Positions 40,519-64,000 of a stretch of 64,000 nt of DNA are shown here, in pieces; position 1 is the first letter of the stretch; each line of letters opens with the position of its first letter. The DNA lies in the IMG/VR virus record IMGVR_UViG_3300018868_001080. One strand, 5' to 3'. The notes under the pieces were generated by a model, which saw only the letters and a program-made list of their open reading frames with translations, was not told the DNA's origin and made no database searches. The stretch is from a virus. A program made the translations under genes and the position numbers.

Positions 40519-43500
40519 ATGGCTTTAATTAATACAAATGAACTTTACATCAAAGTTTTAGATTATACTGGCACACCATCATTAAGCACATATGCATTGC
40601 CACAGACACCCCTAACATTTGTACCTGATTATTCTGTAGTCCAACTACTATCCACTGTTTCGTTTGTATCTTCACTCACATCTTATACAAACACATTCTA
40701 TATTCCTGATGGAAACGATTACTCCAATATTAAAATAAGATGGGATTTTGGTGACGGAACGTACCAGATAAGCCCCACCGGTACACATGCATACAATTAC
40801 CCTGGCACATACAAAGTAACATTATATCTCATTAATGAGAATGGTGAGAGCTTTAAAAACAATTTCATAGTCAATGTGACTGTTGCAAATTATTTGCAAG
40901 ATGATTGGAAATTCTCTCCTTACCAAAACTTCATAATTGATATACCTGCAGGCAGACTATCTGATAAGATTACAATCAACAGACAGAATAGTTGGCAGAC
41001 TTACAATGCACTATCTGGCACTGGCTACACATTCAACCTGTATGCCAGCGGCTCTGGCACATATTATTATGATGTTAAGAATTATTATAAAGATAAATGG
41101 GCACACTTAAAAAAGTTCTTTAAATTTATTAAGAAACAAACAATCAACAATCTATTACAGGATGTTATCATAAACAACATTGAAACATCCAATACTGAAA
41201 TTTATGCAAAAAAATTAGCTGGCGGTATATCTGTTTGTAGTAAGAATGATACAGGTGCCTTTTTTGTGGGTACAACTGGCAGTGCAGAGTTTTATTATAC
41301 TGATGATAGCAATAAGAACAACACATCTACTAACGATCCTATCTTCATATATGCAAATCTAGACACAAGTAAATTTTATGATAGCTTAGGAAATGCAGAG
41401 CAAGCATATGTCAATCTTACCCCGCTAGAGTTGAGCTACTTGAACACCATGCCTGCAGTATTGCCCATCATCAAGACCAGATACAATCCTGCAGCTGCGC
41501 TCACTATAACGTCCAATGGATTGGACGGTGAAGGTGAATCCACCATCAACAGCTTTGCACTCAACAAGACTAGCTTTGCAAATACCAAGATACCGTTCGT
41601 TCTCAAGTTAAAAGATCAAGACAACTACACAACAAAAAGTTACCCCTACCTGTCATCAACTAATATTGCTCCACTCACTTCTTACTATTTCAATATAAAC
41701 CTGCTGGACGATAACAATACAATTGTACCTTCTGTATCATTCTACAAAACAGATTTTGAAAAAGAAATTTTCCAGTCAGGTGGATTCTACAGAGGATACC
41801 TGGTGTGTGATACAGAGGTTCAAAATGCCAAGCTATCTGCTTCTGTGTACATAGATGATATACCAAACTTTGAGCAAGACACTGCATTCATTTTTTACTC
41901 ACAACCCTACACCCATTACATACCCAGAATATTTTCAACCACCATGTACAGCAAGGTGCTAAACACACCATTTGAATCAACCAACACCACATACGACTTT
42001 CTGGACACAATTGACAACAGAAGCATATTCACAATCACACAAATACCTTCTTCAAATAATGTCAGCAATGATTACTGCTTTTGGGCTGCAGATTCTGATT
42101 CTGATCGCTTGCTAAAAATGGATTACAACGGTGGTATCATTGCCACAGTAAATCTTTCTGCTGCCATGTTGAGCAATGGTACTGCTGTTGATTTGCGCAA
42201 CATATATGGCAGTGCTTCACCTTGCAGCATTGCCTTGGATAACAATAACAATGCTTTCGTGACACTATTTGATAGTGGCTCTGTTATTCGGATCAACAAC
42301 ATAACAAATTTAATTGACAGAATCGGCATACCACCGGTCAGTGCCATCGGAACTAACACTTTCTTAATATCATCTGATTATACAAGCAATCAAGGCTGGG
42401 TAGGTGAGTTTACTCTCTTACCGGCAAGTGTGGATGTGGATAAAGATGGCAATGTTTATGTGGTGTATACACACCCACTATCTACAACTCTTGTACGCTT
42501 TGATAACGAGTTGAATTACAAGAAAAAAATTACAGGATCGTTTAGTATCACAGATTATGCACAAAAGATTATCATTGACAGGAACAATAACATCTGGATG
42601 GCCACAACTCGAAAAGAAAACAGTTCCACAGGCAGTGTAAACCTGTCAGGTAAGAATGATCTTATTTGGCTACTAAAAGATACTGGAACTGCTTTTATAC
42701 CAACCTTAACCACATTTGCAGGGTTCAAGCAAATAAGTGACATCACAGTGGATGGTAATCAAAGCTGTTGGGTATCACATGATGTATCAACAGTGACAAA
42801 ACTTGAATACAATCAACTCACCAGGGAGTTTGCACGTCACGATTTCAACATGGGTGAAGTGTATGGTAACTCTACAGATTACTTGCAGAGCATTGAAGGC
42901 ATCTCTTGCAACTCATTGAATGAGATTGTTATTATCAATAATTTTGATTTAAAAATATACTTTCTTGATGCAACTGCTACAACTCAACCCACTTTAAGCA
43001 GCTTGAAGCAAATACAACTACAGTCAGCACCAAATAATTTCATGGAATATCCCATCTCTGCTTATTATGATAGTGTATATCAAGCAAATGGTGATTTTTT
43101 AGGATACAACTGGATTAATAAGTATTATTATTCTGCTGCTAATACCAGAATCATCACCGGCACATCCTCTACGTTCAGCATTTACCCTGCATCTGGTTAC
43201 AATTTAATATTCAAAGAAAATGAAAACTTTGATGGTGAGGGCATGTATAGAAATTTTGCATTAATGGAAACACTGCAAGATAAGAATGTTTTTTTTGACG
43301 ACTTTTTGGGCAAAATCGTTGGCAATCAGCAGTCCAATGCAAACAATGCATTATTAAAAAAGATCTATGAGAAGATTTCTAATTTCTCTGACAACATTGC
43401 AGCTGTAGACACATGCAATGTTGATTCATTAATCTCCAAATGCAACATGTTTGATGTCGCGTATGAAAACTACAGCTACCCATACCCTGCATCACTCAAG

Positions 43501-44019
43501 CGTGTCATTGATATCATAAGCATCAAGCGAAATAAATTATTTGGTAGCTTAAACCAAAGTAATTATAGCTTCTCAAGCAATTCAGACGACTTTAACCTGG
43601 GCAGTATATTGAACCTGACAACTGATACTTTTTCTGCAACTGAAATCCTCGTGGCAAGAGAGAAATTCTCCAACATCTACAAACCTGTTAATACAACCAT
43701 CATCAATGGATATTCTGCTACTGACATAATTCCGCTAGCAGAGTTTACATATGATTGGGGTTGGGGGCTTGTAGCTCCGCAAGGCTTGTCAGGTTTGAAT
43801 ATAGGCGGTTACTATGATTTCTACCGTCTTAGTCTTACTAATCAACCAATCTACGACAATATCATTGATTTTGCTAATAAAAATTCTAACATCATATTCA
43901 ATCTCAGCACTTATGATGATTTTTATGGTGAGGGTGGCATCATGGATCAAAATATCACATATGCTTTCACTAATGGCTTGAGATTAATCTCCAGTGCAAT
44001 GAACGTATATTACAATTAA
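40519..44019 (+). CDS. Large virion protein with PKD domain and beta-propeller repeats
   Basis: WDFGDG...H.Y..PGTYKVTL; repeated I..D..NN.W/V blades. Confidence 0.75.
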   Translation: MALINTNELYIKVLDYTGTPSLSTYALPQTPLTFVPDYSVVQLLSTVSFVSSLTSYTNTFYIPDGNDYSNIKIRWDFGDGTYQISPTGTHAYNYPGTYKVTLYLINENGESFKNNFIVNVTVANYLQDDWKFSPYQNFIIDIPAGRLSDKITINRQNSWQTYNALSGTGYTFNLYASGSGTYYYDVKNYYKDKWAHLKKFFKFIKKQTINNLLQDVIINNIETSNTEIYAKKLAGGISVCSKNDTGAFFVGTTGSAEFYYTDDSNKNNTSTNDPIFIYANLDTSKFYDSLGNAEQAYVNLTPLELSYLNTMPAVLPIIKTRYNPAAALTITSNGLDGEGESTINSFALNKTSFANTKIPFVLKLKDQDNYTTKSYPYLSSTNIAPLTSYYFNINLLDDNNTIVPSVSFYKTDFEKEIFQSGGFYRGYLVCDTEVQNAKLSASVYIDDIPNFEQDTAFIFYSQPYTHYIPRIFSTTMYSKVLNTPFESTNTTYDFLDTIDNRSIFTITQIPSSNNVSNDYCFWAADSDSDRLLKMDYNGGIIATVNLSAAMLSNGTAVDLRNIYGSASPCSIALDNNNNAFVTLFDSGSVIRINNITNLIDRIGIPPVSAIGTNTFLISSDYTSNQGWVGEFTLLPASVDVDKDGNVYVVYTHPLSTTLVRFDNELNYKKKITGSFSITDYAQKIIIDRNNNIWMATTRKENSSTGSVNLSGKNDLIWLLKDTGTAFIPTLTTFAGFKQISDITVDGNQSCWVSHDVSTVTKLEYNQLTREFARHDFNMGEVYGNSTDYLQSIEGISCNSLNEIVIINNFDLKIYFLDATATTQPTLSSLKQIQLQSAPNNFMEYPISAYYDSVYQANGDFLGYNWINKYYYSAANTRIITGTSSTFSIYPASGYNLIFKENENFDGEGMYRNFALMETLQDKNVFFDDFLGKIVGNQQSNANNALLKKIYEKISNFSDNIAAVDTCNVDSLISKCNMFDVAYENYSYPYPASLKRVIDIISIKRNKLFGSLNQSNYSFSSNSDDFNLGSILNLTTDTFSATEILVAREKFSNIYKPVNTTIINGYSATDIIPLAEFTYDWGWGLVAPQGLSGLNIGGYYDFYRLSLTNQPIYDNIIDFANKNSNIIFNLSTYDDFYGEGGIMDQNITYAFTNGLRLISSAMNVYYN

Positions 44020-44031
44020 ATAATACACAAT

Positions 44032-47000
44032 ATGTCTGATATTTTAGAGAACAATATACTAGCAATAACAGTAAGTGACTCTATTGTTGCAGGCACTACA
44101 AACAATGCTGTAGATTATACTAAGCCACTTTCATTCACTGAGTGGTTGGTGCGCACAAACCCAACTGAAACAGACAACTCATATTTAATTAGTCAGTATA
44201 AAATGTATTTGCTCGCTTGGTACAAGACCAAGAATTTAGATACAAAAAATACAGAAGATTTTGTAAGATCTTCTTTCATATCACTTTTACGAGAGATTTT
44301 ATTGAATTATTCTACCTTAGAAGAGCGAAGATTTGTAAGCAATGCAGATTTTAATAATGACCTGGAGCTGTACTCAGTTTTGCCCTTCTTTGTTAAAAAG
44401 ATAAAAGAGATTTGCAATTACTATGCTCTATTAAGACAAAACGTCAGTTTTAAAAAATACGAAAATAGCTTGAAAGGATCACAGGGCGGTGTCATTTCGG
44501 TATTAAAGAATGCAATTTATAAGAATCTACAAGCTACACAAATATCATCAGCAGAATCAAATCTACTCAATTTATCTGCAATTAAGAACAATTTAACTCT
44601 GGAAATTAAGGAACTATTTGATGACTCTCAGTACTTTGACTTGAACCCTGCTCTGCCTGCTACAACATACAACCCCACGTTCACTTCACAATTTTATTCT
44701 TCAAATCTCAACGAACTGGACGCTACACTGTACACTAATTTTGATCAAAGCATCATTGATGCAATAAAGACTTACCCCTTCTTCTTAAACGATTTTAAGA
44801 CACCATACTCAATCAATGTGCAAGTGCAGGCCACTGATCTGGCATATCTCAGAGACAAAGACTTCATCAATCAAATTAATAATCAAGATAAAACTAACTT
44901 GAACCTTAATCTTGAAAAAGAGTTGATAGAGAAATTTATCGGTACTGATTATTACTATGTTAGCACAGGCTCCACCATAACTGACTTCACATCTGGTGTA
45001 CTGTTTCAAGCACAAGACAAGGCAGCCAATTCGCAGAACAAGCGCTTTCCTTCTGTTGCATCTGTGCAAAATGAAGAGAATTTAAAAACCATACGAGAAA
45101 TAGGCGGTTTCTTTCTACCAGATAGACTTGGTGTCTTAAATTTCAACAATTTCAAATACACTGTGCAAATTGACGAGGCACAATTGGAACCTAACAAGAT
45201 TTATATTTTTCCTGACCCATACAAATATGGTAATATTTCAAATCTCTCTCTAACGGATTTTGAGAGCCCGTTGATTTACGAAGAAGATGTCACCTGGATG
45301 CACTATAATAGATCAGCTCAATTTCTCTTTGGTAATGTGGTAAGTAATCCCTTGTACAAAGATTTCTACGCATACCACAGCAGAAGTCAAACAGTTGGTT
45401 ATCAGCCCTATGGCATGTCTCGAGATATTGATAGCACTGAATTTTTTGAAGGCTCAGGTAAAGATGTGTGGGCAAATTCTGATGTGTTTCCTGTGATTGA
45501 AAACGTGCTACCTCTGCAGGATCGTCAATTTAATTTATTAGCAATAAACAAGACTCTCATCAAATACAAGAGTGATATTTACAGCAACAATTATGGATTA
45601 TTTAAAGAAATTAATCCTGTAGGTGTGGGACCAGATGGTAGCAATCAAGGAGATTTTATTTCAGCAGACGAATTAAATTTCTTTAATTTTACAGGTGGAC
45701 GTGGTGGTCTCAATGGCACAGGACGCAAAGGACTCACCTACAATCAATTTGATGCAATAAGATCCACACGAAAGAAACCATGCATGATACTGGATGGTTA
45801 TTTATTTTTTGACATTGATGATGGGTACAACTTCAATTTTGCAATTCCTAATGCTGCAAAAAGAGTGTCTGGTGTATATACACGCACCATCACACAGATA
45901 CCACCTGGCAGTGGATACTTCACGTCTGGACCAGGTATTCTTTCTGCATCACCCACCCCATATGCTAATTATAATATTGGATACCCCTACTCTGCACCAC
46001 CCACTTTCAAACCACTGCCTACACCTCTGTTGCTTGTGGCATATGGTAAAGGGCACTTCATACCTGATGATTTTTGTGATGTCAACACAGTAAATTATTG
46101 CTTGCTGTTGGATTGTGTAACATTTGTGGATGCACTGAGCAATCTCCGGTTGGATGTATCATCAGATTCATCTGCATGGTCCACATCTGTGCCTGTGTAT
46201 TACAGTGAATTGCTTGAAAGCAGCTTGACAACAACTTATACTAAGCCCAACAATGTAGAGAGAGCTACGTTCTCTTACACATACCCTGCATCTGCACAAG
46301 TTATCCAAGAGCTCAACGGTTACAGGTTCAATCTGCAAGGCCAGACACCTTGTGCTGTAACCAACAGCAACACTTCACCTGCAGCAGATTATAATCTTGA
46401 CAACACAAGCTTTGTGAACTTGCCTGTGCCACCTGCCTATGCAACACAAGTGCAAAACCTCACAACCAATAGCATAGGAAGTAAAACGATCTATTCTGGA
46501 CGCAACGAGATTGTGGGTGAAATGTACTATAAAAACGCCAATACTTCACGAGTGGATTTGATACAGAATGCATTATCTGCTGTGTTTATGAAATACCCTG
46601 TTGAAGTTCGAGACAGTGTCAATAATGGCATCATAAATTTTGATTTAATCTATAATGTCATTTTCATTGAAACTGCCGATTACTATATTGTGGACAAACT
46701 AGATTATAATTATGAAGAAAATGCTGTGGAACCGTTCAACAGTGATAAGAATTTCCTATCTACTTTCATAGTAAACAAGAGCGTAGAAAAGATAAGCAAT
46801 ATTTTCTATAACGAAAAATTAAATGAAGCTGTATTCACAAGGCTGGTCTTGCTGCCCACCATGAGTGCAAGCAATCTCAAAATCATATACCCTGAAATAT
46901 ATAAAATAGACATTACCAATCCAGTATTAAAAAAGCTGTACCCTAACTTTGATTTGAATTATAACAACTTGTCAAGCTTCATTCACATTGATGCAGATAC

Positions 47001-47859
47001 AAACATAGACCGTATTGACAAGCCAATCATGACCTATAACGAGGATTCAAAAACATACCTCATAAATTATCTGGCCAAAGACAGTAATAATGTATTTTTT
47101 AATGTTTTTGAAGAATTTCAAATTAAAAACAGCGATGTAATTTTTCTGCAAATGGTGTTCCACAAACCAGAATATCTCATCAAAGACTACAATTTTACAA
47201 TTGTTAATTCTGCAACTGCTCTGCAAAGCAATTCAATTGCAGGTGTGCTCTCTTCTTATCAAAACATCAATACACACACATATTGGTTCTGCATGTCCAC
47301 TGAACCTGTTGTCATTGTGCCAGAATATGTAGCATGTTTATATGGTGTAGTGTTTGTACCAGTGGTGACACCGACACCCACCCCCACTATCACTCCCACA
47401 CCTACCCCCACACCATCCCCCACACCTGCACCCACACCTACGGTGCCACCTTGGATCAACGCTTGCAGTACTTACAGCGTAGAAGTTACTGGTGCGGGCA
47501 CACTCGCTGCAGATGGCATATATGTTCTTTCTGCTGGCGATACAACGTTCTTCAGCCCAACTCCACAGTTTACTGTGTTCTATCAATCAACTAGTGATTC
47601 TCGTTTCTTCTTAATTGGTAACAACAGCTATCCTGACAATAGTACCATATTCAAAGGAGCCATACTCTCCACTCTCTCAGCTGCGAGTGAAAACTTCACA
47701 CTTATGTATACAAGCACAGGCCTGATGCTGGATTATGCATGCGTCCCATATGGAACATATGATGCAATTGGTGGTATTGACCCTGTATACCTGGAAACAC
47801 AAAACTTATCAGGCGTACCCCCATATCCCACAGTTTCATTCTACAGCATGACACAATAA
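44032..47859 (+). CDS. Large virion structural protein with Pro/Thr linker near the C-terminus
   Basis: 1275 aa; [25 protein letters not shown]. Confidence 0.75.
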   Translation: MSDILENNILAITVSDSIVAGTTNNAVDYTKPLSFTEWLVRTNPTETDNSYLISQYKMYLLAWYKTKNLDTKNTEDFVRSSFISLLREILLNYSTLEERRFVSNADFNNDLELYSVLPFFVKKIKEICNYYALLRQNVSFKKYENSLKGSQGGVISVLKNAIYKNLQATQISSAESNLLNLSAIKNNLTLEIKELFDDSQYFDLNPALPATTYNPTFTSQFYSSNLNELDATLYTNFDQSIIDAIKTYPFFLNDFKTPYSINVQVQATDLAYLRDKDFINQINNQDKTNLNLNLEKELIEKFIGTDYYYVSTGSTITDFTSGVLFQAQDKAANSQNKRFPSVASVQNEENLKTIREIGGFFLPDRLGVLNFNNFKYTVQIDEAQLEPNKIYIFPDPYKYGNISNLSLTDFESPLIYEEDVTWMHYNRSAQFLFGNVVSNPLYKDFYAYHSRSQTVGYQPYGMSRDIDSTEFFEGSGKDVWANSDVFPVIENVLPLQDRQFNLLAINKTLIKYKSDIYSNNYGLFKEINPVGVGPDGSNQGDFISADELNFFNFTGGRGGLNGTGRKGLTYNQFDAIRSTRKKPCMILDGYLFFDIDDGYNFNFAIPNAAKRVSGVYTRTITQIPPGSGYFTSGPGILSASPTPYANYNIGYPYSAPPTFKPLPTPLLLVAYGKGHFIPDDFCDVNTVNYCLLLDCVTFVDALSNLRLDVSSDSSAWSTSVPVYYSELLESSLTTTYTKPNNVERATFSYTYPASAQVIQELNGYRFNLQGQTPCAVTNSNTSPAADYNLDNTSFVNLPVPPAYATQVQNLTTNSIGSKTIYSGRNEIVGEMYYKNANTSRVDLIQNALSAVFMKYPVEVRDSVNNGIINFDLIYNVIFIETADYYIVDKLDYNYEENAVEPFNSDKNFLSTFIVNKSVEKISNIFYNEKLNEAVFTRLVLLPTMSASNLKIIYPEIYKIDITNPVLKKLYPNFDLNYNNLSSFIHIDADTNIDRIDKPIMTYNEDSKTYLINYLAKDSNNVFFNVFEEFQIKNSDVIFLQMVFHKPEYLIKDYNFTIVNSATALQSNSIAGVLSSYQNINTHTYWFCMSTEPVVIVPEYVACLYGVVFVPVVTPTPTPTITPTPTPTPSPTPAPTPTVPPWINACSTYSVEVTGAGTLAADGIYVLSAGDTTFFSPTPQFTVFYQSTSDSRFFLIGNNSYPDNSTIFKGAILSTLSAASENFTLMYTSTGLMLDYACVPYGTYDAIGGIDPVYLETQNLSGVPPYPTVSFYSMTQ

Positions 47860-47867: not shown

Positions 47868-48143
47868 ATGGCCACCTTGCCCTATGTATATGCCGAATCG
47901 TTATCAGGCTCTGTAAAATATCTTGGAGAATGTTATGTTGCAACTGGTAACAGTGGCATTATTAATGCCAAAAAAGAAGAGTTTGTAGATGCACTAACAT
48001 GTGACACTTGTTTGGGCCAATCACCGTTTCCTCTGCTTTCACCCACCCCTACCATCTCTCTGACACCGGACCCCACAAGAACCCCCACCCCCACCCCCAC
48101 ACCTACAGTGACACCCACGGTGACACCTACACCAGCCCCATAA
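47868..48143 (+). CDS. Small Cys-containing protein with Thr/Pro-repeat tail
   Basis: ECY...CDTC followed by [20 protein letters not shown]. Confidence 0.75.
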
Positions 48144-48144: not shown

Positions 48145-49599
48145 ATGAATCTCTCTGCATCCAGATCCTTCTCTCTGCTGCCTGCAGATCAATTGTCACC
48201 TGAAAATGATATTGTAGTTTCATTTGATTATGTGACCAATGTGTATGACAACTATTTGAATGTGTATGATAATGAATCACCATCTGAAGGATTCTGTTTG
48301 TTCTTCTATGAAGGCAATGCACCATTGAGTGGTGGTGCACCAGGCGCAGGTCTGGGATATCTACCTGGTGCTGCCATTGTGACCAACAACAACAATCTAC
48401 TTCTTAGCGAAGGCAACAACACATTCACACCATATTATCTTACTGCATATGGCACTGCAAATGGCATGCCAGCTTACAGAGGTGATGCATCTGCACTCAG
48501 TGGTGCAAAGATTGATTTCTATATTGCTGGTTACAATGGCCTGTTTCCTAGCACGTCTGGGTGGCGAATTTGGGATGGCATAAGTAAGTATTTTTATTAC
48601 AGCAATGGTACTGCATTGTATCCCATGTGGGCCGTGAATTGGATTCATGGTCCTGACATTCAAACTGGTTGGGGATACCCCATAATCACCAGAAAAGATA
48701 TGGGATACAGTTATGCAGGCAAAGCTGGTAGCTTGTTGGGAGTTGGTTTTGATTTCACAGGCAACTTCAGAGCCACTTATAATTCGTCAGCCACAGGCAC
48801 TCCAGTCATCAATAATGTCACTCTTAGAAATGGTAATTATGATTACATAACAAATTCCAACAACCTTACTTCTACAAACTTTCTGCAACCCACCATACTT
48901 TGGAATAGCTTGGCCAACAGCATGACACCAAGCATTGGCAACCGGGTCAAAGTGCGGCTAACAGACTTGGGCAAAACAATCAATGTGAAAATACGACCAC
49001 ACAATAAAGATGAATATGTGGATGTGTTAACCCACAATGCACAAGATTTAGGACCAGGCAACACCACAGACAGTGTCAAAGTGGGGTTGAACTTCTCTTC
49101 ACTCAACAACACAGAGTTTGGTGTTCGTAATTTTAACATTGCAGGTGTAGCTGCTACAGCAACACCCACTGTGACACCTACACCTACACTCACACCCACT
49201 GTGACACCCACCAGGACACCTACTGCAACACCTGGCGCATCACCAACTGCAACACCAACTGTAACACCCACTCCCACACGCACTGTGACGCCTACTAACA
49301 CGGCCACACCCACTGTGACGCCTACTAACACGGCCACACCCACTGTGACGCCTACCATAACTGTGACACCCACCATATCACAAACACCAGGTGCATCACC
49401 CACAGCGACACCTACTGCGACACCTACACTCACACCACCACCTTCAGTTACACCTACTGCAACACCCACTGTGACACCTACTGCAACACTCACACCTACA
49501 CCTACTGTGACACCCACAACATCTGCACTGCCATCACCGTTCCCTGCAGGCGCACCAATCACTGATGGTATCATTGTGGGCATAGGTAATATCCTATAA
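48145..49599 (+). CDS. Legume-lectin (ConA-like) domain protein with a long mucin-like Thr/Pro tract
   Basis: EGFCLFF, GG.PG.GLGY, LGVGFD, VKVGL.FSS; about 125 aa TPTxTP repeat. Confidence 0.75.
49153..49540 (+). repeat. Thr/Pro coding repeat containing an exact 30-nt tandem (x2.5) at 49281-49355
   Basis: CACTGTGACGCCTACTAACACGGCCACACC repeated. Confidence 0.9.
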
Positions 49600-49614: not shown

Positions 49615-51102
49615 ATGGCCATCTACAATCCATTATACCTGAATAGCAGCACCAACACGTGGACTGCTGTTGATAACACATTGTCTGCAGATCCTATGCA
49701 CACAAGAACTGTGATGTATTCGGGTGATCGCTTGTTTTTTGGTGGTAACTTCATATACAATTTTACCAATGCCAACAATGTTGCTAATTTTCAACTGCCA
49801 GCCAAATCATACCAAGTGGGTTGTGTGGGGTACTTTGACACTACTATCAACCGCATTCAATCCATTGGTGCAATTGGCACATTTACAGAGCAAGCGTATT
49901 GCAATAGTGCGGCATGTGAAGCTCTGAGCACGTTTGACTTGCAGAATTCAGTCAATTGCTTAACTCTGTGTGGTGCAAATCTGGTGGCAGCAGGCTATTT
50001 CAAATCCATTAACACACAAATCACGGGGTTTCAAGCGCTTACTGCAATGCCCACAAGCATTTGGTTTGAATTATCTGATACTCCACCATTCAACACTGGT
50101 ATTCTTTCTGGTCAAGTTATTACTGTGCCTCAATACAATCTAATATTCACCAACTTATATACCATGGGACTGGCAACTAGCTTCATGCCCAAACTGTCTG
50201 GTAATCCTGCCGTGAACATTGCATACTACAGCCCAACTATTGGCAGGTGGCAGGCATTTCCCAACACCACCAATGTAGATTTTAGCAGCGGTGTATTTTT
50301 AGCATGTGAAACCTACAACAATATAGTATATGCAACTGGATTTGGCACTGGTATATCTGGCGGTCTCTACTACAACAGTGGCAATCAATGGAACCAAGTA
50401 ACACCATCCATTTCAAACAATTGTGAAAACACATCCGACACACCTACAGGCTTCTTTCTGTACAACGACCAGCGTGGCAATTTAATATACTGCGGATCAT
50501 TTGATAGCTATACTGGTGATACCGCCAAATCTGGCATAATGAAATATAATGGCAGTGTGTTCAGTGCCATTGGCAATGGTTTTGATGGGTCACCCAATCC
50601 ATATGCAACTTGTGCAATGGTGACGCTATCTGGTGACAACTACATTGCAGTAGGCAATTTTCCAGATAAAATTGCTTGGATAAATCGCAGCACTGGCACA
50701 ACTTGGACCAAACTCTACAATGGTACTGCGGCTGCAGCGGGGTTTATTACAGCTGATACTATCGCATGCATGGATTTGTCGGGTAATAACATGGTGTTTG
50801 GTGGCGCATTCGATTTAGATCCAGCCACCCCTAATACCAATGGTGTTGCTGCAATAACTAATAACAATGTCACAGGCATGCCGCAAGATATATATGGTAT
50901 AGATGATCTCTTTGCTTTGGGACGCTTACCACGAGTGTTGTTTGCCAATGTGCCTGTGGACTATTCTGTGAACACCACAATTGCTGCAGATTTTACTACT
51001 GCAATATTGCAAAGCCACCGTGACACAATGCTCACCACCAGCGGCATATCTGCATATAGCACAGCACCCTACCAAGGTGTTGATGGCATCATAATAACAT
51101 AA
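49615..51102 (+). CDS. Beta-propeller virion/receptor-binding protein
   Basis: Repeated L..GG.F / IA.W....W blades. Confidence 0.65.
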
Positions 51103-53406: not shown

Positions 53407-53407
53407 T

Positions 53408-54031: not shown

Positions 54032-54140
54032 AAAAATAGAACTATGGGACAAGCAATATTATGCTGCTCATGTAGGTATTATTGTTAACAATATGATTAG
54101 CACTTTTAAGCTGACCGGGCTAAATAATTGGATAAAATGA
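54021..54140 (+). pseudogene. 39-aa chimeric scar mini-ORF containing direct repeat B copy 2
   Basis: MNFEKIELWDKQYYAAHVGIIVNNMISTFKLTGLNNWIK* ends like the 52396 protein (TFKLTGINNWIQ*). Confidence 0.65.
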
Positions 54141-54859: not shown

Positions 54860-54866
54860 GATAAAT

Positions 54867-55499
54867 ATGGAAGATCAGAAAATTACAGGCTGCTGTACGT
54901 ACAACGGTGTACTGGCTATGCAAAGACCAGAAGTCTTTGATGTATTTAAGGAGTTTATTACAGCAGTCCGACCATCTAGAGTTGTAGAAATAGGCACAGC
55001 AGCTGGCGGTTTGACTCTTTGTATAAGAGATATTTTTAATGAGATTGGATTGCAAGATGCGCCTGTTAGAACTTTTGATGTCAATCCTGATCAGTGGCGT
55101 GAAAAAGCTTTTGAAAATAAAAATATTGAGCTACACTTAGAAAATATATTTGGTCCTTGCGATGAAGAACCAATCAACATGGTTCTATCTTTAACAAAAC
55201 CCGAACTCATAGTACCCTTCATTCAAGCACCTGGAATAACCTTAGTTTTATGTGATGGTGGAAACAAGAGAGGCGAGTTTAATTGCTTGGCTCGCTATTT
55301 AAAACCAGGTGATATAATTATGGCTCATGATTATATTAGTAACTTGAATGAGTTTCAAGATCATTACATAAATAAAATTTGGAATTGGTTAGAGATATGT
55401 GACATTGATATACAAGGACATACCGAGAAATATAATTTAAAGCCTTTTTGGCAGGATAAATTTGACAAAGTTGTCTGGGTTTGTAGGCAGAAACAATGA
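54867..55499 (+). CDS. Class I SAM methyltransferase (CmcI/rhamnosyl O-methyltransferase-like)
   Basis: VVEIGTAAGG, LCDGG, LKPGDIIMAHD. Confidence 0.75.
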   Translation: MEDQKITGCCTYNGVLAMQRPEVFDVFKEFITAVRPSRVVEIGTAAGGLTLCIRDIFNEIGLQDAPVRTFDVNPDQWREKAFENKNIELHLENIFGPCDEEPINMVLSLTKPELIVPFIQAPGITLVLCDGGNKRGEFNCLARYLKPGDIIMAHDYISNLNEFQDHYINKIWNWLEICDIDIQGHTEKYNLKPFWQDKFDKVVWVCRQKQ

Positions 55500-57163
55500 A
55501 TCAAAATATTACGCTTGTAACAGGTATTTTTGATTTGGGAAGAGATAAAGCCGGTGAAGGATTCAAGCGACCCTTCACCCATTATATTGTAAAATTTACA
55601 GAACTCTTGAGAGCAACTAAAAATTATAACATGGTTGTGTATATTGAAGAAAGATACAAAGATTTAGTGTTAGATATCAGAGATCCACACAACACACAAA
55701 TTCGTATCAAAGAAATTGATGAGTTCAAAACGAACTTTCCTTTTTATAACAATACTACAGAAATAAGAAACAAAGACAGTTGGTTGAACCAAACTGGTTG
55801 GCTGCGTGAGAGTACTCAAGCAACCATGGAGCTATACAACCCTATGGTTATGTCCAAGATGTTCATGCTGCATGATGAGAAGGTTAGAAATTCCTTCAAT
55901 ACAGATTATTTTTATTGGATTGATGGTGGATTAACAAGCACTGTGCATCATGGTTATTTTTCAAAAGATAAAGTCTTGGACAAGATACCAAAAATTACAG
56001 ATAAATTTCTTTTCATAGCATTCCCTTATGCAGAGGGTAATGAGATACATGGTTTCACAAGAACAAAAATGAATGAAATGGCTCAAACAAAAAATGTTGA
56101 GTATGTTTGCCGTGGGGGATTCTTTGGTGGCCATAAAAATAACATATCAGACATCAACGGCATATACTACTCTCTTTTGAGCAACACGCTTAACGAGGGA
56201 TACATGGGCACAGAAGAGAGCATCTTCACGCTCATGACATACACACACCCGCATTTGTTTGCAAAACACATGATAGATGGTAATGGCCTAATTAATAAAT
56301 TTTTCGAAGATGTAAAGACCACCACATTCACTGAGAATACAATCACATTGAACAATTACTCAGGTGTTAACCTGTATGTGTTGTCATTCAACTCACCAGA
56401 ACAGTTTGAAAAATTAATTGAAAGTTATTTGAAGCAACCTGGTTTTGTACGTGAAACAAAGAATATTCTAATAGATAACAGTACCAACCCTGCAGTTAAT
56501 GACAAGTATGTGGAGCTTTGTGCAAAATTTAACTTTGAACACATCAAAAAGAATAACATTGGCATATGTGGTGGTAGACAATTTGTTGCAGAGCACTTCG
56601 ATTCAACAGATGCCAAGTACTATATGTTTCTAGAGGATGACATGAATTTATGCAGCGAGGATCTAAAGACCTGCAAAAACGGGTTTTCGAGATGTATTGA
56701 CAATTTATATTACAAGATTCAAAAAATTATGGATAAAGAGGATTACGACTTTCTTAAACTATCATACACTGAATTCTTTGGCGACAACACAACACAATGG
56801 TCATGGTACAATGTACCGCAGTCCATAAGAGAATTGTACTGGCCAGATAAACATGTACTGCCTGTGCATGGCTTGGATCCAAATTCACCCAAGACAATCT
56901 TCAAGCATATTGGAAGCATGGATGGGTTGAGCTACATTGATGGTGAGGTGTATTATTGCAACTGGCCTCAAATTGTATCACGAGCTGGTAACAAGAGAAT
57001 GTTTCTGAGTACCAAGTGGGGACATCCCTTTGAACAGACATGGATGTCATTCATGTATCAGTTAACCAAGAAAGACATGTTGAGAGGTGCAGTTTTATTG
57101 GCATCCCCTATAAATCATGAAAGATTTGCCTTTTATAAAAGTGAAGAGAGACGAGAAAACTAA
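55496..57163 (+). CDS. Two-domain glycosyltransferase: HtrL/YibB(WlaTC)-like plus GT2-like
   Basis: TLVT..FD.GR, Y..V..SK, YWIDGG, GGFFGG, GTEE; second domain IDNS, NIGI.GG, FLEDD. Confidence 0.75.
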   Translation: MNQNITLVTGIFDLGRDKAGEGFKRPFTHYIVKFTELLRATKNYNMVVYIEERYKDLVLDIRDPHNTQIRIKEIDEFKTNFPFYNNTTEIRNKDSWLNQTGWLRESTQATMELYNPMVMSKMFMLHDEKVRNSFNTDYFYWIDGGLTSTVHHGYFSKDKVLDKIPKITDKFLFIAFPYAEGNEIHGFTRTKMNEMAQTKNVEYVCRGGFFGGHKNNISDINGIYYSLLSNTLNEGYMGTEESIFTLMTYTHPHLFAKHMIDGNGLINKFFEDVKTTTFTENTITLNNYSGVNLYVLSFNSPEQFEKLIESYLKQPGFVRETKNILIDNSTNPAVNDKYVELCAKFNFEHIKKNNIGICGGRQFVAEHFDSTDAKYYMFLEDDMNLCSEDLKTCKNGFSRCIDNLYYKIQKIMDKEDYDFLKLSYTEFFGDNTTQWSWYNVPQSIRELYWPDKHVLPVHGLDPNSPKTIFKHIGSMDGLSYIDGEVYYCNWPQIVSRAGNKRMFLSTKWGHPFEQTWMSFMYQLTKKDMLRGAVLLASPINHERFAFYKSEERREN

Positions 57164-57175: not shown

Positions 57176-57865
57176 GTGAACACTGTTACAGTTAATCTGT
57201 CTTCTGTACAAGACCCAGGTGATATTGTAATGTACAATCATTACTGGTTTTCCGACCCTTTATCTGGTACAAATATTGCCTATCCAGTGACTGCAAATGG
57301 TGACTTCTTTACATATAGCACCACACCCACAGTAACAGCTGATGATGGTCTCTTTTTTCCGTGGGGGTATCTCTTTGATGACACGTTTGAGACCATATAT
57401 GCAGGTAAATACAAAGGTCTTACAACTTTAAATTTTAATGCATCCGGACTGTCCACAGCATACTTTCCAATCTTGCGCATATATTATGAGTTTGGTGATG
57501 GTACAGTGTACAACAACTCCAGAAATGTGTTGATTGATTACTCCAAGCTTGCCATTGATTCGTTCATAAATGGTTATGGCTATGGTGACCCCAAGTTTAT
57601 ACCTGTAATGCATACGTATCAACCTAGTGATACTACATTCTCTGTTACATACACTGCACATGTGCAGGTATTCAATGGCAGCTTGGTCACAAACAATTTC
57701 TACATCATCATTGATATTGTGCAAGACTCCATATTTGATTTTGATGATATAAATTTACTGGACACAAAATTCATATCATTATCTGAAAAAACCATCATAA
57801 ACGTGCTTGAAGCCTCAAACCCTGAATATATTCTAAATAATCTTTTAAAATATAGTAATACCTAG
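57176..57865 (+). CDS. Virion protein with PKD-like segment
   Basis: YEFGDG...HTY; GTG start 5 nt after TAAATA. Confidence 0.65.
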   Translation: MNTVTVNLSSVQDPGDIVMYNHYWFSDPLSGTNIAYPVTANGDFFTYSTTPTVTADDGLFFPWGYLFDDTFETIYAGKYKGLTTLNFNASGLSTAYFPILRIYYEFGDGTVYNNSRNVLIDYSKLAIDSFINGYGYGDPKFIPVMHTYQPSDTTFSVTYTAHVQVFNGSLVTNNFYIIIDIVQDSIFDFDDINLLDTKFISLSEKTIINVLEASNPEYILNNLLKYSNT

Positions 57866-57893: not shown

Positions 57894-60800
57894 ATGGAAA
57901 TAAGACCTCTAAATAAAACTACATTTCCGTCATTAAGACTAAGCTATGATCTTGATCCCACGCTCAATGTAAGCAGTGATAATTTTGAAAACGAGCAGAA
58001 TCTCGACATATTGCTCAGCAATTTTCTTAACAATGCCCGGGATGAATCATCTAACAAGTATAGTAATTTTTACTTGACAGACAGGGTCAATTTAAGCAAA
58101 AATATTGAGTTCAAAGAACTGGCAAATCCTGAAGTGGAAATTCTTACCACATGGCTGGCTTCTGATGCTGACAAACAGCTCAACACAAAAACAGACTTCT
58201 GGACTGTGGGTAATGATATTGCAGGTGCAACAACTCTGCAAGATGTAGCAGCTTCAGGAATCTTTGTTAGCATTGACAACACATACATTTTTGATATTCA
58301 ATTGTTGAACGAGAAAATTTGCAGGGTGGGGCACACATACAATAATTACACCAGATATTTGACAATAAACTATCTCAATGCCACAGGCAATAGCTTCTTC
58401 TGTCTGGACAATGGTCAAGACCCGTTTGATGCAAATTCAACACAATCGTTTTGTTATTTATACGACAGAAAGAACGATTTTATTGTTCTTTACAAACTAA
58501 TAAATGATGTTGCCCACATTGTGTACACATTTGAAACAACCAAAGATATAAGTTTATCTGTGCCTTTGACATCAGATGATTTTGGTTTCACAAATGATCA
58601 AATATATCGATGCAGAGCACGTTTTGAGTCCGCTACTAAACCGATTGTTGATAGCATGTGGGTGCAGTACGAGAAAAATTTTAAGAATAACAAACTAACT
58701 ATTGATGACAGACCAGCACCTCTAAATTTATTTTGCCCTTCATATGCAAGCATTGACACAAATTTTTTAATCAACACTGAATACTATAATCTTTCTGGTA
58801 ATACATTACCAATCAATATCTTGACTCTCAAGAACACAACAACACCAAACAATTATCAATCCAAGAACAATCCATTTTCAGTGAGAGAACCTGATATACA
58901 GCAACGGCAGTATAGAAAACTTTTCACTGGTACAAATCAAGTTGGGGGACATGACAACATCAAGCTTGGTTACGAGACATTCACAAGCCAACGCATATTT
59001 GAACCTGATAAATTAACTTATTTTCATGCACCACAAGACTTCTTCCCATATCTGCAGCTCAATGTGCAAGACACAGGCTTGATTGAGAGCGGAGCCATGG
59101 CAGGCAACCACCCATTAAGATCTGACAAAATATTCAAAAAGAAAGCTGGTTATAAGTATACATCTCCCTTTGGTGATACCAGTAGCGAACAAAACGGCTC
59201 TTTTCTTTGTGCTTGGTTGTCAGGCAGTGATAACATAACCAACAGGCCTGTATGGGTGGACAGATATTATTTCCCAGATCAAACAAATTACCTTGCAGCC
59301 ATGACAGCAGCCACCAACCCATTCATAAATTATACTTCTGAAACACAAGGGTTAAGAAACGAGTTACCGTTCATAAAGCAAGTTGTTGTTGACATACCAA
59401 GCCGGCTTGCATTTGAGCCTGGCACCCTGTATGCATATCATCACATTGGCAAGAATACAATCAATCAATTGATCAGTAATCTTAATTATGTATTGTTTGA
59501 AAAAAATCTGACCACCTACACAAACACCACATATGATATGCTTACTGGACAGCCAATTGATAATGAACAATTAGAATACATGTTTGATGGCAATCGTTAT
59601 GGCAGCACAACTCGAGTCGCAGATGGTGCTGACAATAATTTCAACGAATTTACATTAAACTTCTACATGCATGTAAATGATTGGCAATCTAATTTTAGTA
59701 ATGAAATCGTTGGCAACTATGTGAATGATGGCTTTGGTGTGTACAACACCAACTATGTCACACCATTCATCACTCTGTTGTCTCCATCAGCAGTCAACAT
59801 ATTCAACACAGATGGTGTGTTGGCTGATAGCAAGAGCTTCAATGCTAAAGTTAACAACATATTCAAATATGATCAATGTGAAGATTATTTTGTTGTTAAA
59901 GCAGATAATTCCATTGCAAGAGTCAACACTGACAGTGTGGTATTGGACACATACAACTTTGGCAACATTGGAAATTCCAGATCCATCTACACATTCAATG
60001 ACAACCTGGCCTTTGTACTGACTGGCAATGCTTCTTCAAGCTTTTATTGCATCAATACTGACACCGGTGGGCTATCTGGCTATAATCAAACACCATATCT
60101 GTATGATGCTGCAAATATAATAGATTTTACCAACACAGGATTTTTAAACATCCTCACACACAACAAGCAAATCTACATACTGCAAGGATACTCACCACAA
60201 ATATTGGGTAACAATATCTATTTTAGCTGGGACAATTTTATCTGGCAATACAACACAATCACCAAAGAGAGATACTCTGCATACAAGTTCAACACATTAA
60301 TTGATTTTAATATTGATTTTGATGGTAATCTCTGGGCCTTGCATGACACTAACAAAGTGTCAAGACTGGACACTACAGTTGAAAAGAATGTGCTGTTCAC
60401 AAAAACACTTGATTTATCTGGTACATTATCCAATATAGATTTGTTATCATATTTTGAAGGCAATAGTTACAAGAAAGAAATGCTGGTGTATTCCCGCTTA
60501 AGCGGGGCAAATGCTGCATTAAGGATGGACAAGCTGCAATATGATGGTGCAGTTGCCATGACCACGCTACTCCCTAGCTATCTCTCCGCTTCTACAACAG
60601 ATAGCAATAACATCACATCAAAAACTGATACAACAGGTGGTGATTATGCAAGATACTATGTAAGAGAGCAATACTCTGCGCATAATTTATCAGCAAAAAT
60701 TAGACTGAGAAATGTTTACAATTATGGCAAGACAGAGAAAATCGATTTAAAGTTTGATTTGTCAGCTGTTGATGTTGGTTATCACCATGTGAGTGTTCGA

Positions 60801-61322
60801 GTTGACACATACAAAGGGATAATGTCCATGTTTTTCGATGGTGAGCTAGTAGCAAACCAATTTTTTCAAGAAAATAACTTTATATTTAACAACCTTCTCA
60901 AAGAACCATTCTATGCAGGCGCCACACCATCTTTTAATAATAAATCGTTGGCTACTAGATTGAAACAGCGCAACACTTTCTTCGCCAACAACACCAAGTT
61001 AAAGAACATATACCTGTACAAGAAGCCACTGGATTACTACCAAATTGGTCTGCATGTTAAACAGGCATTAGACTTGTACCCTATTAACTTTGATTTACCA
61101 TCTGGTCGTCGCAACATTCTGGATGAAATAGAACACGTCTTTAAGAACAAGATGCCAGGATTCAAGACAGGCATTTTTGATTTGGAAGTTAAAAACACTG
61201 GAATAACAGATCTCGTGATAAAGAATACTCTGGAAAAACAAATCAAGCAAACCCTGGCAGGTTGCATACCCTCATATACAAAATTAAGAAACATTATATG
61301 GAAAGAAACAGATGCAAGCTAA
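57894..61322 (+). CDS. Large virion protein, split LamG/ConA-like domain with propeller insert
   Basis: FDG....., FTLNFYM, GYHHVSV.VD...G.MSMFFDG, Y.KPL. Confidence 0.7.
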   Translation: MEIRPLNKTTFPSLRLSYDLDPTLNVSSDNFENEQNLDILLSNFLNNARDESSNKYSNFYLTDRVNLSKNIEFKELANPEVEILTTWLASDADKQLNTKTDFWTVGNDIAGATTLQDVAASGIFVSIDNTYIFDIQLLNEKICRVGHTYNNYTRYLTINYLNATGNSFFCLDNGQDPFDANSTQSFCYLYDRKNDFIVLYKLINDVAHIVYTFETTKDISLSVPLTSDDFGFTNDQIYRCRARFESATKPIVDSMWVQYEKNFKNNKLTIDDRPAPLNLFCPSYASIDTNFLINTEYYNLSGNTLPINILTLKNTTTPNNYQSKNNPFSVREPDIQQRQYRKLFTGTNQVGGHDNIKLGYETFTSQRIFEPDKLTYFHAPQDFFPYLQLNVQDTGLIESGAMAGNHPLRSDKIFKKKAGYKYTSPFGDTSSEQNGSFLCAWLSGSDNITNRPVWVDRYYFPDQTNYLAAMTAATNPFINYTSETQGLRNELPFIKQVVVDIPSRLAFEPGTLYAYHHIGKNTINQLISNLNYVLFEKNLTTYTNTTYDMLTGQPIDNEQLEYMFDGNRYGSTTRVADGADNNFNEFTLNFYMHVNDWQSNFSNEIVGNYVNDGFGVYNTNYVTPFITLLSPSAVNIFNTDGVLADSKSFNAKVNNIFKYDQCEDYFVVKADNSIARVNTDSVVLDTYNFGNIGNSRSIYTFNDNLAFVLTGNASSSFYCINTDTGGLSGYNQTPYLYDAANIIDFTNTGFLNILTHNKQIYILQGYSPQILGNNIYFSWDNFIWQYNTITKERYSAYKFNTLIDFNIDFDGNLWALHDTNKVSRLDTTVEKNVLFTKTLDLSGTLSNIDLLSYFEGNSYKKEMLVYSRLSGANAALRMDKLQYDGAVAMTTLLPSYLSASTTDSNNITSKTDTTGGDYARYYVREQYSAHNLSAKIRLRNVYNYGKTEKIDLKFDLSAVDVGYHHVSVRVDTYKGIMSMFFDGELVANQFFQENNFIFNNLLKEPFYAGATPSFNNKSLATRLKQRNTFFANNTKLKNIYLYKKPLDYYQIGLHVKQALDLYPINFDLPSGRRNILDEIEHVFKNKMPGFKTGIFDLEVKNTGITDLVIKNTLEKQIKQTLAGCIPSYTKLRNIIWKETDAS

Positions 61323-63039
61323 AGAAATAACAAAACTATACAACTACGAGTATGATCGATCACTTGGTGTGCCTAATGCCATGCCTTACAGTTTGGAATC
61401 TATTTTAATACCCAACAATGAAACAGCATACCACGCAACCATCAATGAAGTGTATGCCAAGCTGCAAGCAAATTTAATATACCTATACTCTCTTACCAAA
61501 CTAGCAGACAACAACATACCTGTAGACTATGCAAAAATAGCATCTGGGACACCCACAGCTTTTTATGCAGCGTCTGGAGCCTTCAAATGGATTTCCACAG
61601 ATGCCATAACATCCAATCAATCCAAACCATTGTCAAGCTATGGCTTGCCTCAGCTTGACAAGCTCAATGATGGCAAATTCTATGACCGTCAGGTTGATAG
61701 CTTGGAAAATAATGTGGGGTTCTTCGTTTCTGATAGTTTCATATATGCATTAACATCCAATTATACCAACAATACCATTGGTGTGCTAATATCAGCAAAC
61801 AGAGTCACAGAAACCTCCAACGCCACATTTTCAAAACTTAATTCCATAGCTTTTGATGGTGCAACTTTTGTGTATGTCGCAGATGGTGCACAAGATTCCA
61901 TATACAAGTACAATATTTCCAATCTATTTCTGGAGGATAATATAATTGGTAGAAAGATTTTGTATGTTGACAGCCTGGGTGGAACAGGCACATACCAAGA
62001 CACAAGCAAATTTAATAACCCCTCTTTCATTAACATATACAAAACGAACCTGTATGTGGTAGATAAAGCAAATTACTGCATAAAAGTATTTGACAGCAAT
62101 CTCAATTGGAAGACAACATACCGGAGAAAGGCATTGTTTGCACAAAATAATGTTACAGCTTTTAGAGTCAACCCATACAATGATTTGCTCTATTTTGGCT
62201 TTGAAAACAAATTTACAATCTTAACACCAGATTTAACGATGCCACCACCACCTGAATCACCAGCCATACTCAATCTTAACCTACCATACGATGCACAGAG
62301 AGTCACCAACTCAAACATTGATGTAAATGATGCAACCATGTATAGTTTGTCGTCATTTCTTCTATCTGGTGAAAATATTGTTGATTTTAGTTTCTCAAAA
62401 ATAGATAAAAATATTTTCTATATTATCACTAACAAGAACATATACAAAAGATTTGTAAGCAAACCAGATGTGCAGATTGGCCAGTTTCAACTGGCCAGGG
62501 ACAATACATATGTGGATAATTTTAAATTCAGTTATGTTGAAACATATGATGACAACACTGATAATCTTACCGTTTACGGAAACAGAAATAATGCAGGCAT
62601 CTTCTATTCTTTTCTGGAAGATTCAAACTACACATCAATATTGACTAACAATGATCTGGATTTCTATACAATACAAGAGATTAGAATAAACCCTGAAGAG
62701 TATTCACAGGATTGGGTATTTTCCAAGGCCAATCACAAAATTTTGCTCAATATACTCACCATGCGGGATCGAATTGTGAAGAGATTTGCTGGTCAATATG
62801 ATAATGATGGTAACTTGTTGTTCTTTGGTACCCTGTACCTGATTGACCAAGAGGTACAAAAGGAACAGTTTGATTTATCATTAAATTATTTTGTCGGAAT
62901 CAATGAAATGTTCACTAATTCTGTTATGAACAGAAGTATCAGCAAATTATATAGCTTGCAAACACAAATGTTGAGTGTACTGAGAGATGCAGCAGTAAAT
63001 GTGTACCCACCTCTTACATCCATCAAGGTGGTTTCTTAA
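61312..63039 (+). CDS. NHL-repeat virion protein
   Basis: VYVADG...IYKY, GG.G....KFNNP, LYVVD..N..IKVFD. Confidence 0.75.
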   Translation: MQAKEITKLYNYEYDRSLGVPNAMPYSLESILIPNNETAYHATINEVYAKLQANLIYLYSLTKLADNNIPVDYAKIASGTPTAFYAASGAFKWISTDAITSNQSKPLSSYGLPQLDKLNDGKFYDRQVDSLENNVGFFVSDSFIYALTSNYTNNTIGVLISANRVTETSNATFSKLNSIAFDGATFVYVADGAQDSIYKYNISNLFLEDNIIGRKILYVDSLGGTGTYQDTSKFNNPSFINIYKTNLYVVDKANYCIKVFDSNLNWKTTYRRKALFAQNNVTAFRVNPYNDLLYFGFENKFTILTPDLTMPPPPESPAILNLNLPYDAQRVTNSNIDVNDATMYSLSSFLLSGENIVDFSFSKIDKNIFYIITNKNIYKRFVSKPDVQIGQFQLARDNTYVDNFKFSYVETYDDNTDNLTVYGNRNNAGIFYSFLEDSNYTSILTNNDLDFYTIQEIRINPEEYSQDWVFSKANHKILLNILTMRDRIVKRFAGQYDNDGNLLFFGTLYLIDQEVQKEQFDLSLNYFVGINEMFTNSVMNRSISKLYSLQTQMLSVLRDAAVNVYPPLTSIKVVS

Positions 63040-63042
63040 ATT

Positions 63043-63061: not shown

Positions 63062-63080
63062 TCTATTGATAAATACATGT

Positions 63081-63338
63081 ATGGCTGGAAATGCACGATT
63101 TCATAACAAGTACCACAGGGCCAATCACCATACTACTCCCTCTGGAGCAATACCTGACAGTGGCTCAGACCCCATAGCATCACCACAATATCCATTTCAA
63201 GGCAACTTCGTTATTAACGGTGTGCTTTCAGCTAGTGGTGGGTTAACGATGCAAGGCCTATCCGGTATTAATTATTCAGCTACCATTAACGCTTTAACCT
63301 GGACAGGGAAAAATGGAGTGTTGGTGAGCGTGGTATAA
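63081..63338 (+). CDS. Small virion protein (MAGNARFHNKYHRANHHT...)
   Basis: ATG 5 nt after TAAATA; His-rich N-terminus. Confidence 0.7.
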   Translation: MAGNARFHNKYHRANHHTTPSGAIPDSGSDPIASPQYPFQGNFVINGVLSASGGLTMQGLSGINYSATINALTWTGKNGVLVSVV

Positions 63339-63342
63339 TAAC

Positions 63343-64000
63343 ATGGCAGACATAAGCATAGTAAAGATTAAAGTTCGTAGAGGCACAGACTCTGACAGAA
63401 TCCGTGTGATTCTGGATGAAGGAGAATTGGGGTTCACAACTGACACCAAGCGCTTGTTTGTGGGTGATGGTAATACTCTGGGTGGGGTGAACATTGCTAA
63501 TAAATTTTTAGGCAGAGGACTAAGAGGATCGTTTGGTACTGCTCTTGTTGGTGATACAGTGTATGACGTTTTACAAAACAACATGTTTGGACTAACGGCT
63601 ACACCACCTTCTCTTTCTGCTAATTGGGCGAATTTAGGACCACAGACAGACGATGTTACACTTCAGTACAGAGGCACACCCAACAAGCTTAGCATCATAG
63701 ATCATGCCATCACACGTGTGCAGTTGAATGCAGCAGACATTGTGTACTCAGGATTATCTGCTACAGGTGACAGCCAAATCCTACTTGACCTCGATCAAAA
63801 CACTCTCAAATTTAATGGTAATAAAGTGTATGTGGACACCACTGTAATATCCATGTCTAGTCTCAAATCCACACCTGTTGGTTTGGCGACTACTGGCTTG
63901 AAGTGGGATGGGCTGTATATAGTACCAGGAGCAGCAGCACTTGCAACAGACGCCACATACCTATCATTACCATCAAATTCCCTGTTCATTCTGAATGAAC
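63343..64000 (+). CDS. Tail fibre protein with Mtd-N/hyaluronidase-N-like head domain, truncated by the window edge
   Basis: Own translation: MADISIVKIKVRRGTDSDRIRVILDEGELGFTTDTKRLFVGDG; open to the end of the window. Confidence 0.85.
   Translation, partial: MADISIVKIKVRRGTDSDRIRVILDEGELGFTTDTKRLFVGDGNTLGGVNIANKFLGRGLRGSFGTALVGDTVYDVLQNNMFGLTATPPSLSANWANLGPQTDDVTLQYRGTPNKLSIIDHAITRVQLNAADIVYSGLSATGDSQILLDLDQNTLKFNGNKVYVDTTVISMSSLKSTPVGLATTGLKWDGLYIVPGAAALATDATYLSLPSNSLFILNE

Follow-up and report, generated by a model that had tools for sequence, protein, structure and literature searches.

Glycosylation of the HMW1C type is cytoplasmic and N-linked and acts on large β-rich adhesins at many short N-x-S/T sequons. 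The O-glycosylation sequon of the Bacteroidota, D-(S/T)-(A/I/L/V/M/T), has an obligatory Asp and is used in the periplasm, and the lipobox of lipoproteins, L-[A/S]-[G/A]-C, belongs to an N-terminal signal peptide. The targets of PglL carry a Ser flanked by Ala within disordered, Ala/Pro-rich periplasmic regions, with WPAAASAG as the optimal motif and no rigid sequon (PMC8423747). In mycobacteriophages, virion glycans are carried on the C-termini of the capsid and tail tube proteins (Freeman et al. 2023, Cell Host Microbe, as summarised in PMC12619734). Here we describe a tripeptide, Leu-Ser-Ala/Gly (LS[AG]), in the tail proteins encoded by a 64,000-nucleotide stretch of viral DNA (IMG/VR record IMGVR_UViG_3300018868_001080; the whole stretch is called the window). 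The window covers part of the genome of a distant T4-like myovirus and encodes a T4-type large terminase, a tail sheath, a baseplate hub and a gp6-like wedge protein (38660-40516). A first-pass annotation had noted the tripeptide in the proteins encoded beyond gp6 and had read it as a dispersed modification site, possibly for Ser O-glycosylation by a neighbouring gene cassette.

An excess of LS[AG] in the outer tail proteins

Everything past gp6 in the window consists of ten structural proteins, with a six-gene cassette (51136-57163) in between. The ten distal proteins contain 34 LS[AG] tripeptides in 5,766 residues, which is 7.5 times the 4.5-4.65 expected from composition. In 2,000 shuffles of these proteins the standard deviation was 2.1 and the maximum 13, and the Poisson probability of 34 sites for an expectation of 4.5 is 8e-19. 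A first-order Markov model, whose expectation of 14.2 already includes the dipeptides of the motif itself, still gives p = 6e-6. Among all 8,000 tripeptides, LSG ranks second and LSA fifth in enrichment in the distal proteins, with only a TPT/PTP repeat above them. The block from the terminase to gp6, tail sheath included, holds 3 LS[AG] against 3.7 expected, the replication block 5 against 3.2, and the six cassette enzymes none against 0.6. The per-protein counts of the first-pass annotation (5, 6, 1, 3, 5, 1, 8, 1, 2 and 2; total 34) were reproduced exactly, its rough expectation of about 5 agrees with the computed one, and the enrichment outlasts composition shuffling, the check that it had proposed. 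It had also reported no site in the cassette enzymes, as found here, and about four in the replication block, where the count is one too low but the lack of a marked excess stands.

The excess extends to 80 IMG/VR loci that have a gp6 relative at 42-90% identity. Their open reading frames (ORFs) downstream of gp6 contain 629 LS[AG] against 108 expected (5.8x) and those upstream of gp6 contain 69 against 60; the 44 homologues of the protein encoded at 57894 hold 190 sites against 32 expected. In loci with gp6 at 27-31% identity the excess is still 2.7-7x, and a sister clade without it was looked for, down to this level of gp6 identity, and not found. Over whole genomes, the LS[AG] ratios are 2.3, 2.0, 1.4 and 2.4 in four complete relatives against 1.06 in the cyanophage Syn9. 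The motif is confined to the outer tail (baseplate and fibre) and to some neck proteins, such as the gp14-like neck (head-closure) protein of the window (18907-19668, minus strand), which has two sites against 0.13 expected. No LS[AG] excess was found in gp6-gp12 and gp34-gp37 of T4 or in the 6,076-residue fibre of Syn9, and no tripeptide in these T4 and Syn9 sets goes past p ~1e-6, which rules out a general property of T4-like distal tail proteins. The excess is confirmed as real, strong and clade-wide.

That it could be an artefact of composition, of a DNA-level motif or of the post-hoc choice of one tripeptide among 8,000 is vanishingly improbable. Although the motif was picked after the sequence had been seen, the Poisson probability given above withstands any correction for 8,000 tripeptides; and although the pooled counts of the relatives contain orthologous copies, taking one representative per protein family leaves 34 sites against 8.8 expected, with seven of the eight families that have an expectation of at least 1 lying above 2x. 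The excess depends on the order of the residues, as permutations of the same three stay below 1x ([AG]SL 0.82x, SL[AG] 0.81x and L[AG]S 0.69x), and these permuted-order controls together with the shuffles dispose of composition or local composition bias. At the DNA level, the 34 sites of the window are written in 26 different nine-base words (codon triplets), and both serine codon classes are in use at the motif, TCN making up 70% there and 64% at other serines of the relatives. In the relatives, the degenerate pattern that codes for the motif was counted 606 times in frame, compared with 35 and 29 times in the other two sense frames. A DNA-level motif is ruled out by this strict frame dependence and by the codon diversity.

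Residue preferences, conserved sites and structural context

Each of the three positions has its own preferences. The first is enriched in L (5.9x), followed by V (2.8x), A (2.4x) and I (2.2x). At the second, S (5.85x), C (2.45x) and T (1.71x) are favoured, and A (0.72x), G (0.99x), N (0.98x) and D (1.05x) are not, which indicates that a hydroxyl or thiol is preferred, rather than mere smallness or a turn-capping Asn or Asp. The third position takes A (6.9x) and G (5.1x) before S (3.1x), C (2.0x) and T (1.8x). N and D stay at 0.9x there, so that a tiny side chain, not a positive-phi residue, seems to be wanted. A looser form of the motif can be written as [L>V,I,A]-S-[A,G>S]. The hydroxyl that a sequon would need at its acceptor position is present here as a statistical preference. 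The flanks hold little information (0.22 bit per position at most), small residues being slightly favoured just ahead of the Leu, and a single shared repeat domain can be discarded on these grounds. The statement in the first-pass annotation that the proteins have different folds and do not share one repeat domain stands as far as the flanks give no shared domain signal, but some sites do recur with repeat periodicity, as in the 57894 protein, where the sites at residues 841, 869 and 897 are spaced by 28 residues. LS[AG] behaves more like a short serine-centred recognition tag than like a single structural element, although part of the sites are positionally conserved and could be structural.

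In the 57894 family the motif serines are kept in 88, 71 and 45% of cases in three identity bands, against 57, 33 and 20% for other serines, and two other families are alike. The site WLSG (LSG at residues 442-444 of the 57894 protein) reads LSG or LSA in 44/44 homologues. Sporadic sites are found as well: in well-aligned columns they are about twice as frequent as in permuted controls, and in the gp7-like family 69 of the 130 sites fall in indel-rich regions, where controls have a handful. Conserved columns on one side and sporadic and indel-region sites on the other point to positional conservation alongside a continuing gain of sites. The segment FLCxWLSG...RPVWVDRYYxP (window 59217-59300; residues 436-465 of the 57894 protein), which contains the sole LS[AG] kept in all the 44 homologues, is strongly conserved throughout and looks like a functional or fold core.

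AlphaFold2 (AF2) models were obtained for the 40519 and 57894 proteins (mean predicted local distance difference test scores of 72 and 76, respectively), the latter showing a β-propeller. The thirteen sites of the two models are spread over loops, strand ends, strand starts, mid-strand positions and positions ahead of a helix; the five of the 40519 protein comprise a loop, a mid-strand position, a position just past a strand, a 3-10 turn and a position that precedes a helix. When all the alignment columns that ever carry the motif are placed on the two models, about 63% are coil and 30-35% strand, equal to the values for other serines, and no preferred offset from strand ends was seen. The motif does not depend on one fold. 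In a close complete relative (G001), an RCC1-like propeller protein (L108:6333-7943) has 8 sites and a BspA-type leucine-rich repeat (LRR) protein (L110:11130-13499) has 11, LSA lying within the repeat unit in both and, in the LRR protein, in most of the units. In close homologues of the former, LSA is found at the blade turn in 59% of 209 blades; in 93 more distant homologues LS[AG] accounts for 8% and LKN for 35% of 553 blades. Similarly, in 120 mostly bacterial homologues of the LRR protein, LTS is found in 55% and LS[AG] in 0.6% of 2,376 units, with a whole-protein ratio of 0.71. In the RCC1 and LRR homologues, one finds K, N, T or S at the equivalent positions. Since the homologues outside the clade read LKN or LTS, the fold appears to fix the Leu and not the Ser-Ala, and the phage versions have switched to LSA at what is otherwise a hydrophilic position.

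The serious rival to a modification tag is a structural micro-motif without any modification, in which the Leu would anchor the end or the start of a β-strand in the core, the Ser hydroxyl would cap the backbone and the tiny third residue would allow a tight turn, the element having spread via the β-propeller, solenoid and fibre repeats of the host-recognition apparatus of the clade. We regard this explanation as possible without being probable. It agrees with the many sites at strand-loop boundaries and with several observations that weigh against a modification tag: six conserved columns of the 57894 family hold 116 of its 163 reliably aligned sites, the invariant WLSG of the conserved core among them; the other shared sites drift conservatively, to LSS, LTA, ISG or ITG; a weak alternating pattern follows the motif, with hydrophobic residues slightly over-represented at +5, +7 and +9 relative to the Leu; and the motif is part of the repeating unit of the RCC1-like, LRR and fibre-repeat proteins, in which sites are periodic. 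The RCC1 and LRR comparisons themselves rest on repeats inside single proteins, which are not independent copies. However, a structural element would have to be reconciled with a secondary-structure context that is mixed and equal to that of other serines, with a centre that shows no enrichment of the usual turn-capping residues Asn and Asp, and with a third position at which Gly, Asn and Asp are not jointly favoured, unlike what a positive-phi turn needs. In addition, where these folds occur outside the clade, this place is taken by LKN or LTS, and the β-rich fibres of T4 and Syn9 lack the excess.

The motif could also be a recognition site that leaves the serine unmodified, either a docking site for an assembly chaperone or decoration protein or a "hydrophobic-x-small" protease site, which we consider improbable. 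Its large aliphatic-x-tiny shape does resemble the subsites of signal peptidase I or of the lipobox, and it is restricted to proteins that assemble into the distal tail. Nevertheless, 5 to 8 cleavages per fibre protein would destroy the protein, Cys follows the motif in only 2 of 606 sites, a strict middle Ser is atypical of such protease sites, and no conserved partner gene was found beside the targets.

We tentatively favour LS[AG] as a serine-modification tag, a reading that in our estimate falls just short of probable. What stands of the modification site of the first-pass annotation is a dispersed, fold-independent tag: an ordered motif with uninformative flanks, a hydroxyl or thiol at its centre and conserved serines, placed in the outer tail and neck, at turn positions where homologues outside the clade have other residues. 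Its link to the cassette did not stand.

The six-gene cassette and the distal genes

The cassette (51136-57163, plus strand) encodes a GT60-type N-acetylglucosamine (GlcNAc) transferase (PF11397), an FkbM methyltransferase, an FtsJ/CmcI-like methyltransferase, an HtrL/YibB-like protein and two proteins without assignment, which lie on either side of the FkbM gene. The first-pass annotation had proposed Ser O-glycosylation by one of these enzymes. A complete relative of 221 kb (G002), whose gp6 is 45% identical, has no PF11397 match, and tblastn with the six cassette proteins gave no match in it; G002 keeps the excess, with 6 sites against 0.35 expected, 4 against 0.79 and, in a fibre protein, 7 against 0.24. 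In G001, which is ~85% identical to the window, the GT60 and HtrL genes are kept (87-90% identity for these flanking genes), the interior of the cassette is different (window 52396-55499 compared with 130.9-134.9 kb of G001) and the motif is unchanged. The cassette interior thus appears swappable. Because G002 keeps the excess without the cassette and G001 keeps the motif with another interior, the cassette is not required for the motif and is not its reader. On this gene content the link between the motif and the neighbouring cassette is refuted, and the GT60 cassette was rejected as the motif enzyme; the test proposed in the first-pass annotation, whether a different cassette goes with a different tripeptide, came out negative in G001. 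The persistence of the motif without the cassette is also in line with a structural micro-motif.

Three distal proteins encoded one after another have Thr/Pro-rich mucin-like tracts at their ends (47338-47475, 48021-48140 and 49138-49551), and the gene for the GT60-type polypeptide GlcNAc transferase (51136) follows directly downstream. TPT is the most enriched tripeptide, with 40 occurrences against 3.7 expected. These tracts would be a more natural substrate for this enzyme than LS[AG].

No DNA-level match between the window and cultured phages was found. The match of the tail sheath to cultured phages is limited to its C-terminal 42%, at ~35% identity, and the closest cultured gp6 proteins, which are from cyanophages, are ~25% identical. 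For the distal proteins and for a transferase encoded at 7076-7750 (see below) no cultured relative was found, nor was a useful solved homologue found for the target proteins or this core transferase.

All the distal genes are on the plus strand. The first after gp6 (40519-44019) encodes a large baseplate protein of 1,166 residues with a PKD domain and a β-rich, possibly propeller-like region, suggested by weak propeller-like Pfam matches. Its five LS[AG] have their codon starts at 41011, 41833, 42154, 42643 and 43786, and three of them are common to relatives, as LSA, LSG, LSS or LTA. It is followed by a second large protein of 1,275 residues (44032-47859), which has six sites (44572, 45940, 46573, 47527, 47674 and 47806) and the first of the Thr/Pro tracts. 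The next two genes encode a small protein of 91 residues (47868-48143), with one site (47901) and the second tract at its C-terminus, and a protein of 484 residues (48145-49599), with three sites (48151, 48325 and 48496) and the third tract, which contains 23 TPT. Both match the same part of phrog_15511 and have the tract near their C-terminal end, and the stop of the 91-residue ORF lies one base ahead of the start of the 484-residue ORF; the two may be paralogues or a split gene. The protein of 495 residues that precedes the cassette (49615-51102) has five LSG/LSA sites (49681, 50104, 50194, 50626 and 50776), two of them in alike contexts 50 residues apart, and its orthologue in G001 has seven.

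Beyond the cassette, a protein of 229 residues (57176-57865) with a single site (57260) precedes the fibre or baseplate protein of 1,142 residues (57894-61322), which contains the β-propeller and, in some homologues, a ConA-like lectin domain. Its eight sites are at 58791, 59217, 60072, 60414, 60498, 60582, 60687 and 60759. Then come a protein of 575 residues (61312-63039) with one site (62362) and a protein of 90 residues (63066-63338) with two (63225 and 63258). The last protein (63343-63999) is cut by the end of the window and has two sites (63613 and 63754). Its N-terminus is Mtd_N-like (E 6e-11), resembling that of the major tropism determinant, which hints at a receptor-binding protein of the kind targeted by diversity-generating retroelements.

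Candidate reader enzymes and comparison with known systems

Twelve ORFs of G1 have matches in all of the relatives G001, G002, G009 and G010 and none in Syn9. A Pfam scan of six of the twelve gave one glycosyltransferase-like gene, at 7076-7750 (plus strand), a small gene (PF13712) with a conserved HDD motif, which lies within the replication operon, flanked by the polymerase region and a gp41-like helicase. It is present in 8/8 clade records tested, including all four large fragments, and in 470 IMG/VR loci, the best 80 of which are 47-78% identical; no homologue was found in the cultured phages searched, and no late-promoter motif was found upstream of the gene. This place in the early replication operon is roughly where T4 has a DNA glucosyltransferase gene. 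By its position, the product of the 7076-7750 gene is no less likely to act on DNA than on protein, and it is a candidate reader of the tag or else a DNA-modifying enzyme. No enzyme, this one included, is tied to the motif except via shared ancestry. These two points count against the modification tag, together with those from the conserved sites.

Sugar genes were found in the window, G001 and G002. The sugar island of G002 contains epimerases, a nucleotidyltransferase, GT2-family matches and GT8-like, radical-SAM/SPASM and PIG-L genes, some of them with homologues in G001. A second sugar module, at L092:10378-15969 in G002 and 148.9-154.5 kb in G001, comprises a GT8-like gene, a radical-SAM/SPASM gene, a PIG-L deacetylase and a 365-residue protein without annotation (49% identical), and was not found in three other complete genomes searched. 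As a candidate, the GT8-like gene common to G001 and G002 lacks support, since three complete genomes (G009, G010 and G011) and five fragments do not have it.

If the serines are modified, LS[AG] would be a short linear tag on the outward-facing tail proteins (outer baseplate, fibres and some neck proteins) of a large uncultured aquatic T4-like clade. A clade-conserved enzyme, for which the 7076-7750 glycosyltransferase-like gene is one candidate, would read the tag in the cytoplasm and modify the central serine. O-glycosylation would be the most plausible chemistry, since sugar-activation islands and several glycosyltransferases are encoded in these genomes. As to the variable cassette (51136-57163), it would not be the reader, and may work on the Thr/Pro tracts nearby or lengthen a glycan. 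A more specific proposal, which we consider unlikely as a whole, is that LS[AG] is the sequon of an undescribed cytoplasmic serine O-glycosylation that is core to a very large clade, the PF13712-like transferase starting the glycan on folded tail proteins and variable cassettes such as that of the window extending or varying it, to give a sugar-coated adsorption apparatus.

Modified serines would mean a short, sequence-defined sequon for the decoration of phage tails, common to hundreds of environmental T4-like genomes, and a feature of major lake and sea viruses that has gone unseen for want of a cultured member. Host recognition, the stickiness of the particles and their resistance to proteases and grazers could all be influenced by such a coat, and glyco-engineering would gain a compact tag. 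Were the motif structural instead, it would represent an unusually strong, lineage-specific building rule of three residues that applies across folds, useful to fold prediction and protein design.

Among the known systems, the O-sequon of the Bacteroidota, to which the first-pass annotation had likened the motif, is also three residues long, and its hydroxyl residue is followed by a small or aliphatic one. However, it is not enriched here (D[ST][AILVMT] 1.06x in the window and 0.94x in the pooled set; DS[AG] 0.90x), which leaves the analogy without support, and virion proteins assemble in the cytoplasm. The lipobox has nearly the same preferences at positions 1 and 3, but it ends in the Cys that hardly ever follows LS[AG], and the sites described here are internal and multiple. 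SGS and DS[DE] reach 1.3x and 0.8x, respectively, in this clade. With HMW1C the likeness lies in the mode of action, as a soluble enzyme would mark dozens of short motifs on a large β-rich adhesin before assembly; the sequon is different, N-x-S/T not being enriched here (0.91-1.08x). PglL shares a strong preference for Ser over Thr and small residues beside the acceptor (PMC8423747), but in LS[AG] a Leu precedes the Ser, and ASA reaches only 2.3x. In mycobacteriophages, as would be the case here, phage-encoded transferases decorate the virion proteins of the phage itself in the host cytoplasm (PMC12619734). Their glycans are C-terminal, and no tripeptide sequon is described for them; the candidate sites of the present clade are dispersed and found only in baseplate, fibre and neck proteins, with no C-terminal pattern of the capsid and tail-tube type and without involvement of the head. 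Although none of the compared systems matches, the nearest working analogy for LS[AG] would be the cytoplasmic multi-site glycosylation of large adhesins.

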